The position numbers and the translations under genes were made by a program. A stretch of 64,000 nt of DNA from the IMG/VR virus record IMGVR_UViG_3300043959_000228; one strand, 5' to 3'. The first letter of the stretch is position 1. Every line of letters starts with the position of its first letter. Under the pieces are notes generated by a model. It saw only the letters and a program-made list of their open reading frames with translations, was not told where the DNA came from and did not search any database. This stretch comes from a virus (lineage: Duplodnaviria; Caudoviricetes). This document shows positions 4,606 to 54,782 of the stretch, piece by piece.

Positions 4606-5178
4606 ATGACAGATTTTCATATCGATATCAACCATCAGATGGTGTCGAATCAGCAAGTATTCGCTGGCCCTATCTTCACCATTGATCAGAGAGTCATTGA
4701 CATTCAGGGTAATCAGGTAATGCGACAAATCGTCAATCATGCACCAGTCGTGTACATTCTGGCTCATAACATCGATAATGATACGTATCTCCTAGAGAAA
4801 GAGTATCGTTCTGGTGTGGACGCCGTGTGCTACGGCCTCCCAGCTGGCTTTATTGATGATCATGAAACACCAATGACGGCAGCACAAAGAGAATTACAGG
4901 AGGAAACTGGTCTCATCGTGCAGGAGAGCGATCTTGAGCATGTCGGAGATTGGCACTCTAGTCAGGGATTCACTAATGAGCTTGCTCATGTATATCGTGT
5001 TGATGTTCATAAGCCAATCATTGGTTCTACATCATTTGACAAGGACGAGTTTGTCGAGTCTCAATGGGTGTCTTGGAATGACCTTTATGAATTGGTAAAG
5101 AATGGTGATCTATCAAGTGCTACGGCCGTAGCGACGGTATTGCATGAGGTTCTATTGAGGCAGGAGAAGGAATCATGA
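4606..5178 (+). CDS. Nudix hydrolase, ADP-ribose pyrophosphatase-like
   Basis: Nudix box 'GFIDDHETPMTAAQRELQEETG' preceded by 'EYRSG...LPAG'. Confidence 0.9.
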   Translation: MTDFHIDINHQMVSNQQVFAGPIFTIDQRVIDIQGNQVMRQIVNHAPVVYILAHNIDNDTYLLEKEYRSGVDAVCYGLPAGFIDDHETPMTAAQRELQEETGLIVQESDLEHVGDWHSSQGFTNELAHVYRVDVHKPIIGSTSFDKDEFVESQWVSWNDLYELVKNGDLSSATAVATVLHEVLLRQEKES

Positions 5179-6296
5179 GTCGTCAACGAATTGGTGTGGT
5201 ATTCGGCACGTTTGCTCCATTGCATGTCGGTCATCAACAGGAGATTTATAAGGCCGTAGCAGAATGTGGACAGGCTATCGTCATCGTCAGTGGATATCAG
5301 GGTGATCGTGGTGATCTAGTTGGTCTGCCCTTGCAGAAGAGGTATCGGTATCTACGAGAGGCCTATAGTGATGAAACGACCATCCACGTGGATATGATCG
5401 ATGAATCAGCAATACCAAGGTATCCTGATGGATGGGGTCCATGGCTTGATGCGCTCGTAGCTGTCATTCGGAGAAACACGCCAGAGGGCATGACTGATAG
5501 GGAGTATGTCCTCTATACTGGTGAGCAAGATTATATTGATGAGTTGTCAACAAGACTGCCGAATTATACGGATGATCATACATCATGGACGACCGTGAAA
5601 CTGGATAGGAGTCGCATACCTGTATCGGCAACCATGATTCGGTCTGATTCAATGCAGTACTGGTCGTTGATCAACCGTGTGTTCAGGCGTGCGTTCACGA
5701 AGAAAGTGCTCGTGATGGGATCAGCGTCAACTGGCAAATCTACTCTTGTACGAAGACTCGCTCGGTCAATTAATGCGCCATTTTCTGAGGAATACGCTCG
5801 AACATACGAGGAGGAGAGGAATCTTAAGGACGACGATCTTAGCGTGGCAGATTACGTGTCCTTCTTTGAGGGACAGGATCGAGTCAATTGTCAGGAGGTC
5901 AAATCACCATCAAATCAAGGTGTGGTCTTCTTTGATACTGACGCTATTGTCACGAAGACGTATGCTGAGCGGTATCTCCCTGAAACTGATCGTAGCCAAT
6001 GGGAGGCCGTTGCCCAGTTATACATCAATAGGGAATCGCCAGATCTCATTCTTCTGATCCCTCCGATGACTGACTATGTTGACGATGGATTCAGGAATAT
6101 GGACTGGGCCGCTGACACTGATGGCTTCTACTCGGCACTACTAGCCAATCTTCGGCAGGCTAATCTTATGGATAAGGTCGTCGTACTTGATGATGGCGGC
6201 ACGCCAGGCGACGAGGGTGGCTTCTACGCAAGATTGACGCATGCTAAGAAAGCCGTTGAGGATCATATTGGTGTCTCGATGGACTTCTTGGACTGA
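5175..6296 (+). CDS. nadR: NadR-type NMN adenylyltransferase / ribosylnicotinamide kinase (no HTH)
   Basis: 'FGTFAPLHVGH' (HxGH) and 'SATMIR', then P-loop 'GSASTGKST', 'EEYAR' and 'FFDTD'. Confidence 0.92.
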   Translation: MSRQRIGVVFGTFAPLHVGHQQEIYKAVAECGQAIVIVSGYQGDRGDLVGLPLQKRYRYLREAYSDETTIHVDMIDESAIPRYPDGWGPWLDALVAVIRRNTPEGMTDREYVLYTGEQDYIDELSTRLPNYTDDHTSWTTVKLDRSRIPVSATMIRSDSMQYWSLINRVFRRAFTKKVLVMGSASTGKSTLVRRLARSINAPFSEEYARTYEEERNLKDDDLSVADYVSFFEGQDRVNCQEVKSPSNQGVVFFDTDAIVTKTYAERYLPETDRSQWEAVAQLYINRESPDLILLIPPMTDYVDDGFRNMDWAADTDGFYSALLANLRQANLMDKVVVLDDGGTPGDEGGFYARLTHAKKAVEDHIGVSMDFLD

Positions 6297-32469: not shown

Positions 32470-32482
32470 TTATTACAATGAT

Positions 32483-32611
32483 AGATCTCGCGTCTAATCC
32501 TGATTCTGGCCTCGTCTAGTATAACGTATCATCTGAGGTCTTTTATGATCAGCGCCAGTCAGAATAGGCTCAGAACATGACTCTTTACTCATGTTCTGAG
32601 CCTAACTAGAT
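32483..32611. repeat. Dispersed structured intergenic repeat, copy 2
   Basis: AGATCTCGCGTCTAATCCTGATTCT...TCTAGTATAACGTATCATCTGAGG-N24-AATAGGCTCAGAACATGA CTCTTTAC TCATGTTCTGAGCCTAACTAGAT, with a stem at 32565-32580/32589-32604. Confidence 0.92.
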
Positions 32612-32659
32612 TTCATGCGCAATTTTCATGTAAGAAATGGTGTTGGTATAATGTTCTTC

Positions 32660-48624: not shown

Positions 48625-50273
48625 AAAAGACCATACTACGAAGAACGCCGCAGGCTATAATGACAATCGTCGGATTCATTCTACTCATAGCGTTCGCCGG
48701 TATCTTTATCTACACCGCTAGGACATGGAAAACCGTTAATGATCCCGTCATTAAACCAAATCCTTATTCAACGCATTATCAAGCTTCCGATTATCCTGCA
48801 AAAACTTTTATGTCCAAGGTTCTGTCTACACCTCCTGACGGCGTGACGGCCTCTGATTGGAAAGTTTCAGAGGATCATAAGGCTGACACTGAGGCGAATA
48901 TTCTTCCAGAATCCTGTGATGCCCCAACCCAACCTAAATCATTGCTAAGCAGTAAGTCAGCTTCTGGAGGCGGTATCAAAATCGTTATAGCCGTTTTCGG
49001 ATCTGGTCAAGCGCGATCACAATATCAATCATACGCGAAAGCTCTAGCTGATTGTCAGACAGTCCAGTCAGATGATACATCATCGTCATATAATGCTGGA
49101 TTGCTTATGACAAAGGGTGACGCTATCATCAGTTTACAGAACACGTCTACCACACCATTGGCTACTATACAATCATGGTTACAACGCCGTGTAGACGACT
49201 CTTTGACAGCAACATCGTGTGTATCTACTGACGAGAGCATTGATGATGCGAAACGATCGTTCTATTATGATCAGAGTTCATATAGTGGTACATTCACGCA
49301 GGAGGTCGTAACGGTTAACGACCCTATGATCGTTATATCAAGTCCTCAGAGTCTATCAAATACGAATATGAACATCGAAGCGACGTTTGTCGATCCATCC
49401 TCGTCTAAGACCGTAGTTCCAGAATCTCCATTACCAGCAGGCATGGCATCTAGCATTCCTTCAGCACCAGGCAGGCCAGCTGTCACCTCAATGCCAGTAA
49501 AACCATCTAATCAGCAAACAGTAACATACCAAATAGCTGATACGAAGGGTCCAGGATGCGGATGGTACTGGTCAGGTCAACAAGCTCCCGTATTCTCTAA
49601 GGACGTCATATCGAAGAATAAAAAGACGATTATTACTGCTGCTCGAAAGGAATTACGATCAAATATCGCATCGTATAATCAGCGTGCTGCATCATGGTCA
49701 ACAGTGACGTCGTTATCCTTCAATACTCGTACATCATGGGATTCATATACAAATCAGGTGAATGCTGTTTATGCTTCATGGAATGATTTACGTTCTAAAC
49801 GAGCGTCAGTTCGATCTGCTTGGTATCAATATGTCGAGGACTACACGACGTGGTCACAATGGGATCAGAAGAAAGCAGACGCTCAGACACAATGGGATAA
49901 AGATGTCAGTAGTTGTGTGGCCAAGGCTAAACAGGACTATGATCAAGCAAAGCAACAATCAGCGGAAGCGTCAGCCTCCGCATCAGCATCGGCTTCTCCT
50001 TCGCCCTCACCATCTGACTCTGACTCTCCGTCTCCATCACCATCTGATTCATCGTCTACGGCTTCTCCATCACCATCGACTACACCATCAGAGACCCCTG
50101 AGGAGAAGGCCGCTGATGACGCTGCATATGCTAAGATGCAGACTGATTGTTCGTCCAGTGTAGCGAAGCCATCGATATTAACGGCTACGAAACCTGGAAA
50201 TCCGGTTAGACCAGCTATCCCATCTGGTATGACTATGCCTGCATCATGGCCTACGGTTAATGATGGTCAATAA
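48621..50273 (+). CDS. Membrane-anchored extracellular protein with paired Cys and Ser/Pro-rich linker
   Basis: N-terminal TM, Trp-rich coiled segment and (SP)n repeats near 49970-50095. Confidence 0.7.
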   Translation: MKKTILRRTPQAIMTIVGFILLIAFAGIFIYTARTWKTVNDPVIKPNPYSTHYQASDYPAKTFMSKVLSTPPDGVTASDWKVSEDHKADTEANILPESCDAPTQPKSLLSSKSASGGGIKIVIAVFGSGQARSQYQSYAKALADCQTVQSDDTSSSYNAGLLMTKGDAIISLQNTSTTPLATIQSWLQRRVDDSLTATSCVSTDESIDDAKRSFYYDQSSYSGTFTQEVVTVNDPMIVISSPQSLSNTNMNIEATFVDPSSSKTVVPESPLPAGMASSIPSAPGRPAVTSMPVKPSNQQTVTYQIADTKGPGCGWYWSGQQAPVFSKDVISKNKKTIITAARKELRSNIASYNQRAASWSTVTSLSFNTRTSWDSYTNQVNAVYASWNDLRSKRASVRSAWYQYVEDYTTWSQWDQKKADAQTQWDKDVSSCVAKAKQDYDQAKQQSAEASASASASASPSPSPSDSDSPSPSPSDSSSTASPSPSTTPSETPEEKAADDAAYAKMQTDCSSSVAKPSILTATKPGNPVRPAIPSGMTMPASWPTVNDGQ

Positions 50274-50376
50274 TTTTTGCACAATAACATCGTTTCATTA
50301 TTACGTTGGTAATATGTATCTCATGATCGAATGGCGGTCATGAAGTATATGGAACATAAGAAGTAAGGAGATTATA

Positions 50377-50859
50377 ATGAGCTCAGGATACGGATTCGCG
50401 GCTTTCAATGGTGGCGTCACATGGATTGGTGAACCAAGGAAGACGAAAGCTGGAAAGACTGTTGTCAATTTTAGTGTTGCTGTTTCTAAGGACAGAAAGA
50501 ATGATGATGGTACCTGGACGCAGGATGGAGGCGGTAAGTATTTCGAGTCCGTCACCGCTTTCGGAAGGCTAGCCGATAATGTACTAACCACCTTCAAGCC
50601 GGGTGATCGAGTGATCGTCATTGGTGAGCGTGATCCGAAGCCAAGTTATACTGATGGTAAGGGCGTTGAGCACCAGAATGAGAATCAGGTAACGGCCAAG
50701 GCTGTCGGCCCGAACGTCGAAATGTGGCCGTGGAAGGCTATCAGAGAGTCATCGGGTGAGAACACCTCTCGTCCGAAGGCTGCTACTCAGCATCATTCCG
50801 CACCGAAGGCCGCACCAGTAACATCGTCAAGTGACGATGATGAAGAGGACGATTGGTGA
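50377..50859 (+). CDS. ssb: Single-stranded DNA-binding protein
   Basis: 'GKTVVNFSVAV', 'VTAFGRLADNV', 'KPGDRVIVIG' and acidic tail DDDEEDDW. Confidence 0.9.
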   Translation: MSSGYGFAAFNGGVTWIGEPRKTKAGKTVVNFSVAVSKDRKNDDGTWTQDGGGKYFESVTAFGRLADNVLTTFKPGDRVIVIGERDPKPSYTDGKGVEHQNENQVTAKAVGPNVEMWPWKAIRESSGENTSRPKAATQHHSAPKAAPVTSSSDDDEEDDW

Positions 50860-50887
50860 TCATATCGTAACATTATCATGTTACACC

Positions 50888-50927
50888 AACAGGACAGTAA
50901 CAATCGTGTTGCTGTCCTGTTCTTTTT
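50888..50927 (+). terminator. Intrinsic terminator after ssb
   Basis: AACAGGACAGTAACA-ATCG-TGTTGCTGTCCTGTT followed by CTTTTT. Confidence 0.8.
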
Positions 50928-50948
50928 ATATAGGTATAATGTATCATT

Positions 50949-52580
50949 TGCAGTAAAATATCTTTTATAGCACACGCCATACTATCATACGAATAATATG
51001 ACCATGGTATAATGTGATTATCACACGATAAGACGAGGAGGAGTAGATGACCAGTAAGACACTCGTCTACACTCGCTCCTACAAGCTCGCGGCCCCCGCT
51101 AACAAGGGGAAGATCAACAGGATCAGAGACCTAATCCACGAGTACCAGCACGGCCTCACCATCCTAGTAGCCGTTATGGACAGGAACCTGACACGAAACG
51201 CCGCGCTACCAGGCAAGTACACTAACTCGAGAGCCATCCTCCACCTCTCCGCTCGGCAGACCCAGTCCTGTTACGCGCAGGCCAGGGAATCATACGCTTC
51301 CTGGCTCTGCTCCCTACAAAAGACTGTGAAGCTGATCATCACGCTCAGTACCCTCGACGCGCACACGAGGGATGTCCTCTACAGGCTGAATTACCGCATG
51401 GCATGGTACGCGAAGACCTACGAACTGGACTGGATCGTCACTAGCGACGGCGCGCTTATCCACCCCACTACAGTGGAACGAAGAGATGGTAAGACAATGA
51501 TGCTTCCCGTGAGTAGTGAGCATCTCTGGCTCATGAGACGCATTGTGAAGCGCGCTCGCAGGGTGAATCACCGCCCAATCCTCGGGCATGAGACCACGTT
51601 AAAACTAGACGAGAAGAGCGCTGTCCTAGAGGAGTCCAAGGGGACGGGCTTCTCATGGTGGCTACGAACGAGCACACTGGATAGGGGTCACCCCGTACTC
51701 ATACCAGTAAAGGATAACAGGTTCTTCGCTAGGAGGCGCGTTGGTGGAAGACTCCTGAATCATGTCCAACTCGCGTTAAAGAGTGACACGCTGAGTGTGT
51801 CAACCGTAATAGAGAAGCCATGCGCCCCGCTCCGCGAGGATGGTGACGTGATCGCCTTTGATTGGGGTCTCGTGAGCCTGTTCACACTCCCTGACGGGCG
51901 TATGCTCGGCCGGTCAGCCCTGGCTGAGTTGAAACGATTAGACGCCATGCTCATGAATCGCGTGAGAGATCTTACTAGCCGGGGTGAGCGTCTCAGGGAT
52001 GACTTGTATTACAATGCTCTAGTATCCAGGAGTCGGAGTCTCATGGAGAACGAGATTGGGCGCCTGCTGAACATGCTAGCCAGAACGGCCAGGGAGATCG
52101 TGGTTGAGGACTTGGATTTCAGGGGTGGCGGACTCTCAAAAAGGATGAATCGTATCATATCGAGAGCGGGTCGTGGGTTCTTGAAGCGGAAGCTGCAAGC
52201 GTTACACGAGGAAAAGGGCATTATCGTAACTAAGATTGATCCTGCGTACACCTCGCAGGAGTGCTCCTCGTGTGGTCACGTCTCGAATCGGAATCGGCGC
52301 GATCAGGCTAGGTTTAAGTGTGAGTGCTGCGGACGGGCTCTGAACGCGGACGTGAATGCTGCTCGCATCATCGGAGGACGTTCCTCCGATGTCTTACCCA
52401 GGGGCCGGGGCGCGGCCCATCGTAAAACACTCTATGACGTGCTGGAGAACCGTCACCGTGCTTCGTGTGGTGCATGGCTGGCACGTCACACGACGGCCGG
52501 CTTGTAGATCCGGTCGGTGACGGTGATACTCTCGTCTCGTGTCTCGGGATTGTTTGCTTGTTATAAACATTTCGAGTTAC
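50949..52580 (+). mobile_element. Solo TnpB cassette (IS200/IS605- or IS607-derived, no TnpA); left end uncertain
   Basis: Visibly higher GC from about 51030 to 52550. Contains tnpB and a 3' RNA scaffold and is flanked by a 14-bp direct repeat TATAATGTATCATT (50935-50948, 52581-52594). Confidence 0.6.
51047..52507 (+). CDS. tnpB: RNA-guided endonuclease TnpB
   Basis: RuvC triad intact: 'IAFDWG', 'IVVEDL' and 'NADVNAA'. Zn ribbon 'PAYTSQECSSCG...FKCECCG'. GAGGAGG RBS. Confidence 0.92.
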   Translation: MTSKTLVYTRSYKLAAPANKGKINRIRDLIHEYQHGLTILVAVMDRNLTRNAALPGKYTNSRAILHLSARQTQSCYAQARESYASWLCSLQKTVKLIITLSTLDAHTRDVLYRLNYRMAWYAKTYELDWIVTSDGALIHPTTVERRDGKTMMLPVSSEHLWLMRRIVKRARRVNHRPILGHETTLKLDEKSAVLEESKGTGFSWWLRTSTLDRGHPVLIPVKDNRFFARRRVGGRLLNHVQLALKSDTLSVSTVIEKPCAPLREDGDVIAFDWGLVSLFTLPDGRMLGRSALAELKRLDAMLMNRVRDLTSRGERLRDDLYYNALVSRSRSLMENEIGRLLNMLARTAREIVVEDLDFRGGGLSKRMNRIISRAGRGFLKRKLQALHEEKGIIVTKIDPAYTSQECSSCGHVSNRNRRDQARFKCECCGRALNADVNAARIIGGRSSDVLPRGRGAAHRKTLYDVLENRHRASCGAWLARHTTAGL

Positions 52581-52600
52581 TATAATGTATCATTGTCTTT
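52440..52600 (+). ncRNA. Predicted TnpB omegaRNA/reRNA (scaffold ~52440-52580, guide from ~52581)
   Basis: Stems at 52449-58/52515-24 (10 bp perfect), 52463-73/52481-93 and 52496-500/52510-14, plus a terminal hairpin at 52543-52576. It overlaps the tnpB 3' end, as is typical for TnpB RNAs. Confidence 0.72.
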
Positions 52601-52649
52601 ATATCTTAATGTCAATAATACTTACAGGAAATACAGGAGAACAAATCAT

Positions 52650-53447
52650 ATGGCTATCTTTAGAAGGTCACAGGAAGAACATGATGATATTGATCCTATG
52701 GACACTATCAAAGGCAACGAGGCCTGGGAGACCATATTTGACTCTAAGAAGAGCGGTATTGAGGACATTAAGGGTATCAAGTTAGAGAAAAGCTCTAATC
52801 GAAAGAAAATTCTCATTATAGCTGCATCAATAGTGACCATCATGGCTTTAGGATTTGGAGGATATTGCCTATATGATTATATGATGTCACTGCGAAATAA
52901 TCAAATTGTTAATAATGAGCAACCATCAACATCTTCTAGCCAATCAGTGAATCAGAATGGATTGAAGAACCCAGCAGCTGACGCTAATGATATTAACGGT
53001 TCATTATCAGGACCTGTACAAATCACCGTCGAGGATAACAGGAACGTTGCTTTGAATCTCCCTGATAAGAAAAAGCATACTCTTGTATTTCCAGCTCTTA
53101 CTGATAACATCACAGTGTCATCAGATGACTGCACTTTGAAGAATCAGGCAGCTAATTGTTATCTAGGGACATCAAAAGTCAACGATCAAAATATCAGCAT
53201 CTATGCTATCCGCGACGCTAAAAGTAGTTCCTTGTTATACGCCTCGACTGATTATAAAGTGACGCCATCAAATGGAGCTGGTTTAGCTTATGTTCGTAAA
53301 ATGACGGTGTCTGATAAGAAGGACGTGACTGCGCTAATTATTGTCTTCAAGGATCAGACAGGTGTCATACTGACGTCTGATAACGCTGACGCAATCACCT
53401 CGTTAGCTGCAGGAGACACACATTTTAACGCTATGGCGTCAGAATAA
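52650..53447 (+). CDS. Single-TM membrane protein
   Basis: AGGAG RBS before ATG 52650; TM 'ILIIAASIVTIMALGFGGY'. Confidence 0.7.
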   Translation: MAIFRRSQEEHDDIDPMDTIKGNEAWETIFDSKKSGIEDIKGIKLEKSSNRKKILIIAASIVTIMALGFGGYCLYDYMMSLRNNQIVNNEQPSTSSSQSVNQNGLKNPAADANDINGSLSGPVQITVEDNRNVALNLPDKKKHTLVFPALTDNITVSSDDCTLKNQAANCYLGTSKVNDQNISIYAIRDAKSSSLLYASTDYKVTPSNGAGLAYVRKMTVSDKKDVTALIIVFKDQTGVILTSDNADAITSLAAGDTHFNAMASE

Positions 53448-53475
53448 TCGATATTTCACCAATGAGGACAGTCAT

Positions 53476-54561
53476 ATGACCAGTAATCTATTCGGTACCA
53501 TACCATCTTCACAGGACGAAGACTTAGTCTTGTCTAAGCAGGCCGTGATGACTCGTGAGGGTCTAAAGATGGAGATGACGAATCAAGATGATCAACAGAA
53601 AATCCAGAACGTCAGTCTTTCGAACAGCTTCATATCAGCATTACAGCAATGTCCAGCCAAGGCGGCAGCTGACAAATGGTTACTGAAAGACATCCTTCCT
53701 GATGACCCATTAAGCCCAATGGTCTTAGGATCAGCTTTTCATAAGGTCATGGAAGTATTCTTCCATTATCAGTCAAAGGATAGAACGGTTGATGGTATCC
53801 GTCTAGCATTTGACGCCATGTTGAAAGACAAGGACTTAAGTATCATCGGAACCGATGAGAAGGCTCTTCATTGGGTGCAGAATGCTGTCAACAAATATTG
53901 GACTCTCGGATTAGAGGATCCTAAGAGCATTACGATTCCTGAAGTCACTATCCACCATGATGGAAAGTATGGTCCATATGATAAGACGGAAGTAGGATTG
54001 GAGTTATTCATTGATGGTCAGATTGGACAGGCCTCAAGGAAGACCCTAGGATTCATTGATCGATTGATTATTGATCCAGATTCTAATAACAATGAATTTA
54101 TTGTTGATGATTGGAAGACTGGTAAGAAGGCCTCAGATTATCTTCCCAAGATCCAGAAATTCCCAGATTTCGGATATGTCCGACAACAGGTTCTTTACAG
54201 TATGATGATGGAGCAGGCGGGATTTCCAATATCCAAGGCAAGGCTCATCTACCCTATAGCAAAATATGAGGATCCTACGTCACATGAGATCTCTAATGGC
54301 CATGTCAGTATTATCGATGTGCATCGTGATGATTATCGAGAGCAGGCCGTGAAAGACGTCGAAGAGGCTGATCGTACGATCAATGTATCGTTAGAGACTA
54401 ATACCTGGGAATGCTCATCATCTCCATTATGCTCATGGTGCCCTCTGGTGAACGTCTGTCCAGCAGCATTCAAACTCAATAAGGCAAATGCCGTAGAGGC
54501 TCGTAAGAACGCTCCTACGCCAGCATTTTACAAAACTCATGGTATTGTTGCAAGCACATGA
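53476..54561 (+). CDS. PD-(D/E)XK RecB/AddB-like nuclease with Fe-S staple
   Basis: 'LSNS...QQCP', 'GSAFHKVME', 'GFIDRL', 'DDWKTG', 'QQVLY' and 'CSWCPLVNVC'. Confidence 0.85.
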   Translation: MTSNLFGTIPSSQDEDLVLSKQAVMTREGLKMEMTNQDDQQKIQNVSLSNSFISALQQCPAKAAADKWLLKDILPDDPLSPMVLGSAFHKVMEVFFHYQSKDRTVDGIRLAFDAMLKDKDLSIIGTDEKALHWVQNAVNKYWTLGLEDPKSITIPEVTIHHDGKYGPYDKTEVGLELFIDGQIGQASRKTLGFIDRLIIDPDSNNNEFIVDDWKTGKKASDYLPKIQKFPDFGYVRQQVLYSMMMEQAGFPISKARLIYPIAKYEDPTSHEISNGHVSIIDVHRDDYREQAVKDVEEADRTINVSLETNTWECSSSPLCSWCPLVNVCPAAFKLNKANAVEARKNAPTPAFYKTHGIVAST

Positions 54562-54691
54562 GATCTCGCGTCTAATCCTGATTCTCGGCTCATCTAGTAT
54601 AACGTATCATCTGAGGGCTTTTACGGCCAGTACCAATCTGAATAGGCTCAGAACATGACTCTTTACTCATGTTCTGAGCCTAACTAGATCT
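54561..54691. repeat. Dispersed structured intergenic repeat, copy 3
   Basis: Begins and ends with AGATCT; stem at 54643-54658/54667-54682. Near-identical to copy 2 outside the 24-nt variable segment. Confidence 0.92.
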
Positions 54692-54782
54692 AATCATCTT
54701 ATATATTGTCGATATTTCCTTAAAGATATATTCACGATACGGATATGGCGTCCAATCATCAATTGATGGTATTATGAAAATC

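Follow-up and report, generated by a model that had tools for sequence, protein, structure and literature searches.

A tnpB unit of probable IS607 descent among the replication genes of a very large phage: junctions, omegaRNA and predicted guide

Three described systems come close to the locus analysed here, a tnpB gene with its flanking DNA in a 64,000-nt stretch of a virus of the Caudoviricetes (Duplodnaviria; IMG/VR record IMGVR_UViG_3300043959_000228). This whole stretch is called the window, and its positions are used throughout. In the C. botulinum IS607 IStron, the motif at the left end is both the integration target and the transposon-associated motif (TAM), the guide matches the donor joint, and the copy of the core at the right end forms the last part of the omegaRNA scaffold, unpaired with the target (bioRxiv 10.1101/2023.11.20.567912). 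ISDra2 TnpB, of the IS200/IS605 family, is a RuvC nuclease with a zinc ribbon that draws its guide from the DNA 3' of the right end, recognizes the target motif of the transposon as TAM and makes staggered cuts 15-21 bp away from it (PMC8612924). TldRs are TnpB-family proteins, some of them phage-encoded, that have lost the RuvC catalytic residues, adjoin the genes they regulate and target promoters through 9-16-nt guides with a ~6-nt seed (bioRxiv 10.1101/2023.11.30.569447).

Our reading is that the locus is an IS607-type unit without tnpA that inserted into a phage promoter and may serve in homing or retention there, a picture to which, taken whole, we assign a probability of about 0.55. The element would be non-autonomous and ~1.64 kb long (50938/50941 to 52583), and would sit in a native promoter between ssb and the gene at 52650, within the replication module of a ~0.49-Mb phage genome. 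A first-pass annotation had pointed to a 14-mer, TATAATGTATCATT, present both upstream of tnpB and just beyond its right end, and had suggested that the downstream copy is a guide directed at promoters. A sequence search of the window finds the 14-mer exactly at both places (Table 1). Its copies probably mark the two insertion junctions, and a role as a promoter-targeting guide is unlikely. The element would then be an ordinary selfish insertion of a known kind, with the identity of guide and promoter mostly a consequence of the insertion site.

Catalytic residues and family

The window TnpB matches the Pfam family Cas12f1-like_TNB (PF07282, E 9.9e-18), and Cas12f and TnpB chains of the PDB match it as well. 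The RuvC triad, judged intact in the first-pass annotation, is indeed so: D272, E354 and D435 are invariant when the protein is aligned with seven relatives. The same alignment has an invariant CxxC..CxxC zinc ribbon (C406/C409/C425/C428) between RuvC-II and RuvC-III. From its sequence, TnpB appears catalytically intact and is predicted to be an RNA-guided, TAM-dependent nuclease. In this combination of RuvC nuclease and zinc ribbon it is like ISDra2 TnpB, and the predicted source of its guide (the DNA 3' of the right end), the use of the transposon target motif as TAM and staggered cutting would extend the likeness. Unlike ISDra2 TnpB, it has 486 rather than 408 aa, and the two match only in the C-terminal TNB region (E about 0.007). 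The gene also differs in G+C from its flanks (54-59% versus 38-45%). The protein is on record in a 491,046-bp contig of the Joint Genome Institute (JGI), alongside two paralogues at 83% identity (P0002 and P0003); protein-pattern scans of viral and metagenome contigs returned no close copy.

The family of the element is indicated by the gene that precedes tnpB in relatives. A Resolvase-domain gene lies directly upstream in P0005 (71% identity), P0006 (46%), P0014 and P0133. Among the loci, it is present as a 191-aa gene directly 5' of tnpB in the complete elements L002 and L154-157 (71% identity), and it recurs in L003 (46% protein identity) and in the P0014 contigs. Because these relatives carry a serine-recombinase tnpA directly upstream, the lineage is that of IS607 and not IS200/IS605 proper, an assignment that, together with the element boundaries below, we regard as very probable on comparative grounds. 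The order tnpA(Resolvase)-tnpB in the relatives is also that of the IS607 IStron, and the partner transposase of the lineage is a serine recombinase, not the Y1 enzyme of ISDra2. No Y1 transposase stands beside tnpB among the relatives examined, whose neighbours are a Resolvase gene or none. Similar subterminal hairpins at both ends, as in IS200/IS605-type elements, are likewise absent: the hairpin at 50888-50921 is the ssb terminator and is unlike that of the right end. The first-pass annotation had argued from the premise that IS200/IS605 elements make no target duplication, which thus concerned the wrong family.

Not all relatives are complete. The closest (L001, L164 and L165; 81% identity) have a solo tnpB, as do L004, L151 and L152, and L158-163 are of the L002 type with a decayed tnpA. 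In the window, tblastn with two TnpA proteins finds neither tnpA nor a remnant of it. Since tnpA is absent here and present in relatives, the window copy would be a non-autonomous derivative of the IS607 lineage. Distant relatives (<=37% identity) are without the GTTAC end motif and were left out of the boundary work.

In L158-L163, from the same JGI sample series as the tnpB-free genome L005 described below, the left end and start region can still be recognised in the ~320 nt upstream of tnpB, which have undergone internal deletions and retain no open reading frame but one of 46 aa. These loci are intermediate between complete and solo elements. Another variation concerns the right end of one complete IS607-type element, present in L154/L155/L157 and in L156 with a left flank identical over >200 nt and right flanks that differ as soon as TTACTAT ends. 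A right-end rearrangement or deletion could account for this, as could recombination between two copies.

Junctions, omegaRNA and predicted guide

Comparison of the relatives delimits the right end to the base. Near-identical elements of the L002 type occur in four different right flanks, and are the same up to ..AAGAAGTTACTAT, their differences beginning at the very next base. Between the window and L001, agreement extends through ..CATTTCGAGTTACTAT and no further, and TTACTAT is found in L003, L004, L151 and L152 as well. In all, TAT follows TTAC at 10/10 independent right junctions of relatives, with the flanks diverging immediately beyond, and the terminal AGTTACTAT is identical in every relative.

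This end coincides with that of a conserved RNA. The consensus fold of the seven relatives comprises ten helices with 66 pairs and spans the 76-nt right end together with the final 150 nt of tnpB. Pairing is possible in 88.8% of cells, compared with 37-47% when the partners are slid, and 31 pairs have changed on both sides (6-13 in slid controls, 17 in shuffles); the window RNA alone has a single-sequence z-score of -3.0. The hairpin at 52543-52576, correctly taken in the first-pass annotation as the well-formed end of the scaffold, is the last helix of this covariation-supported structure, and the invariant AGUUACUAU comes next. A search of Rfam over 50000-53500 at E<=1 gives only a chance match to KDPG-aldolase, with no RAGATH-18, IS605-orfB RNA or group I intron.

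The scaffold would therefore be longer than proposed at first, when it was taken to end with TTAC and the guide to begin at 52581. Because the right end runs through the invariant AGTTACTAT to 52583 in ten independent contexts, and because the right-end core copy belongs to the scaffold in the IS607 precedent, the guide most likely starts at 52584 (AATGTATCATTGTCTT), 3 nt further on. The scaffold would end with AGUUACUAU and the guide continue as AAUGUAUCAUUGUCUU..., in analogy with the IStron. With this start, 11 nt of the guide, not 14, match the upstream copy of the 14-mer. The guide is ~16 nt in studied TnpBs.

On the left, (G/T)TAT is found at the junction of the window, L001, L002, L154, L158, L003 and L004. 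Three left flanks (..CATGAT, ..CAGGTG and ..CTCCGA) adjoin elements of the L002 type, all of which begin GTATTG, whereas the left end of L003 begins GTATTATT and L001 has TATAATGTGTATTATT. The window has GTATCATTTGCAGTA at 50941 in place of the GTATTGTCACCAGTA of the L002 type, with TAT and CAGTA likewise spaced by 7 nt. Since the left-end motif GTATYRTY..CAGTA is thus common to the window and its relatives, the left copy of the 14-mer straddles the left junction. TAT is present at both junctions in every locus examined, as (G/T)TAT on the left and as CTAT at the terminus of the right end. By analogy, we propose (G/T)TAT as the TAM. The earlier prediction of a TAM ending in GG comes close: at the left junction, TAT is preceded by G in 7/9 cases and by GG in 4/9.

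The arrangement resembles the IS607 IStron in further respects. The omegaRNA scaffold overlaps the right end and reaches into the 3' end of tnpB, a core stands at the left flank and at the right-end terminus with one base different upstream (here GTAT/CTAT; TGGG/TCGG in the IStron), and the TAM and guide, both predicted here, would rebuild the empty site. It differs in that the window lacks tnpA, the core is TAT or AT and not GG, no group I intron is detected, 11 extra identical bases are present at both junctions and the host is a huge phage; moreover, TAM, guide and activity are predictions in the present case.

Table 1. Coordinates of the element, its candidate signals and the adjoining phage features
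Feature	Position	Strand	Basis or detail
ssb	50377..50859	+	Pfam SSB; PHROG 44; upstream phage neighbour
ssb intrinsic terminator	50888..50929	+	terminator scan; 15-pair stem + T run
GTAT, candidate TAM / left copy of junction core	50934..50937	+	analogy with IStron TGGG/TCGG
Left 14-mer copy	50935..50948	+	straddles left junction: flank TAT(AAT) + first 8-11 nt of left end
Left end, without tnpA	50938..51046	+	start at 50938, 50941 or 50945; register not fixable inside repeat
Proximal tnpB promoter, extended -10 (TGGTATAAT)	51005..51013	+	sequence reading
tnpB ribosome-binding site, strong (GAGGAGGAG)	51035..51043	+	sequence reading
tnpB, 486 aa	51047..52507	+	open reading frame; Pfam Cas12f1-like_TNB; RuvC D272/E354/D435 and zinc ribbon intact
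omegaRNA scaffold	52357..52583	+	overlaps tnpB 3' end and 76-nt right end; consensus fold of 7 relatives
Hybrid outward promoter	52558..52586	+	right-end -35-like TTGTTA, 17-nt spacer, TATAAT = right-end TAT + flank AAT
Invariant AGTTACTAT	52575..52583	+	end of right end and scaffold; identical in all relatives
Right 14-mer copy	52581..52594	+	3 nt right end + 11 nt flank
Predicted guide (AATGTATCATTGTCTTTATA)	52584..52603	+	from right-end boundary and IS607 precedent
Downstream phage gene	52650..53447	+	open reading frame; no Pfam or PHROG match; homologue in L005 at 4716-5534

The probable promoter insertion and the 14-mer repeat

That the tnpB unit is inserted is evident from a related phage. 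L005, an IMG/VR genome of 419,707 bp, has terminal repeats, is rated complete by CheckV and shares synteny with the window over 46.7-56 kb. In it, ssb (62% identical) and the counterpart of the 52650 gene are direct neighbours without an intervening tnpB, so the unit is an insertion in the lineage of the window. The whole L005 genome contains no homologue of the window TnpB. The insertion site is most likely the promoter of the 52650 gene. A relative of the 14-mer, TATAAYGTATCATC, is found at 979, 32520 and 54598, in each case intergenic and with no tnpB nearby; it is therefore a native promoter element, and the element most likely inserted at one such promoter.

These three copies belong to a ~125-bp dispersed repeat, all on the same strand (934-1075, 32475-32615 and 54553-54695). 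Each consists of TCTAG, TATAAYGTATCATC and TGAGG.., beyond which come a long hairpin with perfect pairing (AGGCTCAGAACATG..CATGTTCTGAGCCT) and CTAGAT, and its 14-mer is 1 or 2 bases off the one that flanks tnpB. The repeat looks like a promoter-plus-stem-loop regulatory cassette.

Related motifs occur across the window. GTATAATG has eight sites (978, 30592, 32646, 40360 on the minus strand, 48131, 50934, 51007 and 59541), mostly after G and with no clear -35, which suggests a phage-wide -10-type promoter consensus. TGTTGGTATAATGTTC is common to the sites at 32646 and 59541. A longer form, GGTATAATGT, is found at 32645, 40352 (minus strand), 50933, 51006 and 59540, that is, at five sites where 0.13 would be expected. 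The recurrence of these promoters, reported in the first-pass annotation, is thus upheld, but their proposed role as guide targets is not: the sites at clp, sbcD, rarA and the tnpB-proximal promoter share only AATGT with a guide that starts at 52584, which falls far short of what RNA-guided recognition would require, and chance is enough to explain 8-mer matches at other promoters.

Promoter elements persist on both sides of the insertion. The left junction retains a TATAAT that reads into tnpB, and ACCATGGTATAAT of the proximal promoter region is conserved in L001. On the right, the hybrid promoter before the downstream gene has 10/12 matches in a sigma-70-type promoter scan. TAT joined to a flanking AAT is found at the right junction in 4/10 independent sites, and TATAAT at the left junction in all four solo copies with a readable left side (the window, L001, L004 and one paralogue in reads). 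Together with the right-end TTGTTA as -35, these observations fit the suggestion, already made in the first-pass annotation, of an element that homes into TATAAT promoters and restores one, although the sample of junctions behind a TATAAT preference is small. They also accommodate a variant in which an IS607 branch with a TAT core inserts between TAT and AAT, each end carrying half of a -10 box and promoters being rebuilt on both sides, and in which the 11-nt match here, beside a candidate TAM, is long enough for binding yet too short for cleavage by the nuclease-active TnpB and so serves autoregulation; we consider this combination improbable.

Circular insertion-sequence intermediates have promoters to which one end contributes the -35 and the junction the -10; here, in contrast, the -35/-10 pair lies at the junction of right end and flank in an integrated copy. 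In T4-type phages, promoter/stem-loop cassettes have been proposed to shuffle genes, and promoter repeats flank small mobile cassettes. To our knowledge, neither junction promoters nor promoter/stem-loop cassettes have been described for IS607 elements.

The 14-mer itself comprises the junction TAT and 11 further identical bases. Both copies are sharp-edged, with ATAGG versus TTAC on the left side and TGCAG versus GTCTT on the right, and the sequences beyond them are alike no more than shuffles. By our own arithmetic (4^-14 times the number of position pairs), ~8 identical 14-mer pairs are expected by chance anywhere in 64 kb, and the pair alone is not rare. A 14-mer that directly abuts the right end and recurs within a 187-bp region upstream of the same gene is nevertheless not chance. 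We also considered whether an older left end, now decayed, or a more extensive promoter duplication underlies the repeat. The two sides have no similarity above shuffles beyond the 14-mer, nor has either side with the intergenic region of L005, which argues against both.

One way to obtain such a repeat is a true target-site duplication of 11-14 bp, in which the element, or a tnpB cassette, was pasted into a staggered break and the left end runs from 50949. The break could come from TnpB itself, whose cuts lie 15-21 bp from the TAM and leave 5' overhangs that would then be filled in. In favour of this, the two copies match perfectly and end abruptly, without a gradual loss of similarity outside them, TnpB does cut with staggered 5' overhangs (PMC8612924), and the left region of a paralogue in reads (TTATAAT-AAGTAAAAC..) is without the GTATCATTTGC stretch that separates TATAAT from AGTAAAA in the window. 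Such a duplication is, however, present in no relative. In its final 8 nt, the left copy carries on the left-end motif of the family, at the 7-nt spacing from CAGTA seen in L002, L154 and L158, and the reported TnpB overhang (~5-6 nt) is shorter than 11-14 nt. IS607 and IS605 elements are not known to make duplications of this kind. We regard this origin as unlikely.

The repeat might also stem from the phage promoters themselves, if a tnpB cassette moved by recombination between them instead of transposition, much like the cassettes proposed for T4-type phages, and a circle with one promoter integrated by a single crossover at a similar promoter. Such a crossover yields exactly this flanking direct repeat, the window has a dispersed promoter family with TATAAYGTATCATC in ~125-bp repeats that include a long hairpin, recombination genes are adjacent and the element has no transposase. 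Only 14 bp are in common, though, and the flanks of tnpB are without the rest of the 125-bp repeat. The right boundary, moreover, is exactly the transposon end of the family, which points to transposon ends over promoter homology, and we give this route a small likelihood.

The origin that we prefer for the 11-nt identity is integration by the ends of the element. The joined ends of the incoming element would have recombined with a promoter of the TATAAYGTATCAT family that resembled its own left end, leaving attL/attR-like junctions with a shared core. The outcome would be a -10 box before tnpB and a rebuilt -35/-10 pair before the downstream gene. We offer this origin tentatively, at clearly less than even odds.

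A separate comparison set the first 30 nt of the right flank against the outermost 30 nt of the left end of the same element. Identities of 8-11 nt are present in 5/7 independent insertions (L002, L154, L158, L003 and the window), with shuffle p values of 0.005-0.09 each; the other two loci have none, the offsets vary by locus and the idea is post hoc. The recombinase may prefer target DNA that resembles its ends, and we record the trend as a lead, not as a result.

The match between guide and left junction could in principle serve regulation. TnpB-omegaRNA would bind without cutting at its own left junction (50934-50948) and repress the distal promoter into tnpB, acting as an autorepressor like TldR, and might also touch a 10-nt match at 982-991. 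As in TldRs, a TnpB-family protein has a guide that matches a promoter. The 11-nt match begins at guide position 1, overlaps the -10 box and is preceded by GTAT, as at the left junctions of relatives; the site at 979 likewise has GTAT and a 10-nt match from guide position 1. Since TldRs bind with guides of 9-16 nt, binding at the 11-nt and 10-nt matches is conceivable, and weak binding may occur at the former, which GGTAT precedes.

TldRs are nuclease-dead, however, whereas the RuvC triad is intact here, and the promoter match is explained by the junctions. L001, L002, L154, L156, L158 and L003 have no match to their own left end starting at the first right-flank base, and no conserved guide-promoter match of the TldR type is found across the homologues compared. 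An evolved autorepression, as suggested earlier, is thus not indicated. Some 60 bp further downstream, the proximal tnpB promoter would escape a block at this site, and the other GGTATAATGT promoters have only 5 nt in common with the guide. Autorepression is accordingly very unlikely. If true, it would mean a nuclease-active TnpB already doing the job of a TldR; nothing conserved supports it.

A role as a homing or retention nuclease fits the locus better. The uninterrupted allele would read ..AGGTAT directly followed by AATGTATCATTGTCTT..., so that TAM and guide would spell the intact promoter, from the -10 box into the start region, which suits such a nuclease. TnpB would cut phage genomes without the insertion, after excision or in co-infection, and the recombination genes of the phage would copy the element into the cut genomes. 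By analogy with described TnpBs, we see about an even chance that this is its function.

Several points weigh against the picture of a promoter-inserted IS607-type unit. On the left, the homology to the L002 type is short (11/15 bases), and conservation with L001 and the paralogues in sludge contigs begins only at 50993; 50949-50992 could therefore be phage DNA, and no other part of the left end is as uncertain. There is some circularity in the (G/T)TAT rule, as the conserved block itself begins GTAT. Within the 14-mer, three AT steps are candidate sites of the crossover, which sequence alone does not place. The right end is without the GG core of canonical IS607. Canonical serine-recombinase insertion needs only 2 bp of identity and does not by itself account for the 11 extra identical bases, and no relative shows a long flanking repeat of this kind. 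Finally, the comparison with an empty allele that had been called for succeeded in part: L005 shows the insertion state, but its intergenic region is too diverged to align and the exact empty site was not recovered, nor was a joint across the element found in the contigs of four bioreactor-sludge DNA runs.

Should the proposed picture hold, the locus would offer a clean natural unit of TnpB and omegaRNA, free of transposase, in a very large phage, behaving like a homing endonuclease at a promoter allele. It supplies a candidate TAM and guide for an uncharacterised group of ~490-aa TnpBs that has no Rfam RNA model, and gives a hint of an IS607 branch with a TAT rather than a GG core and a preference for -10 boxes.

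Phage neighbourhood and related genomes

The genes around the element form a phage replication and recombination module with a helicase/RecA-like ATPase, SSB, a PD-(D/E)XK exonuclease and a DnaB-like helicase. Megablast of 49500-54500 against phage and plasmid collections gave no match, and SSB as a query against metagenomes turned up no closer empty site. In the sludge contigs, paralogous copies break the assembly, with homology that starts at 50993 and diverges after 52518.

In L154/L155, positions 1-103 belong to another, different tnpB just upstream of the IS607-type element, and TnpB genes seem to accumulate in these genomes. In L005, the promoter region downstream of ssb contains a 17-bp tandem duplication (4614-4650, TTGACATATCTATTCTA twice), which places two -35 boxes before TATAGT.

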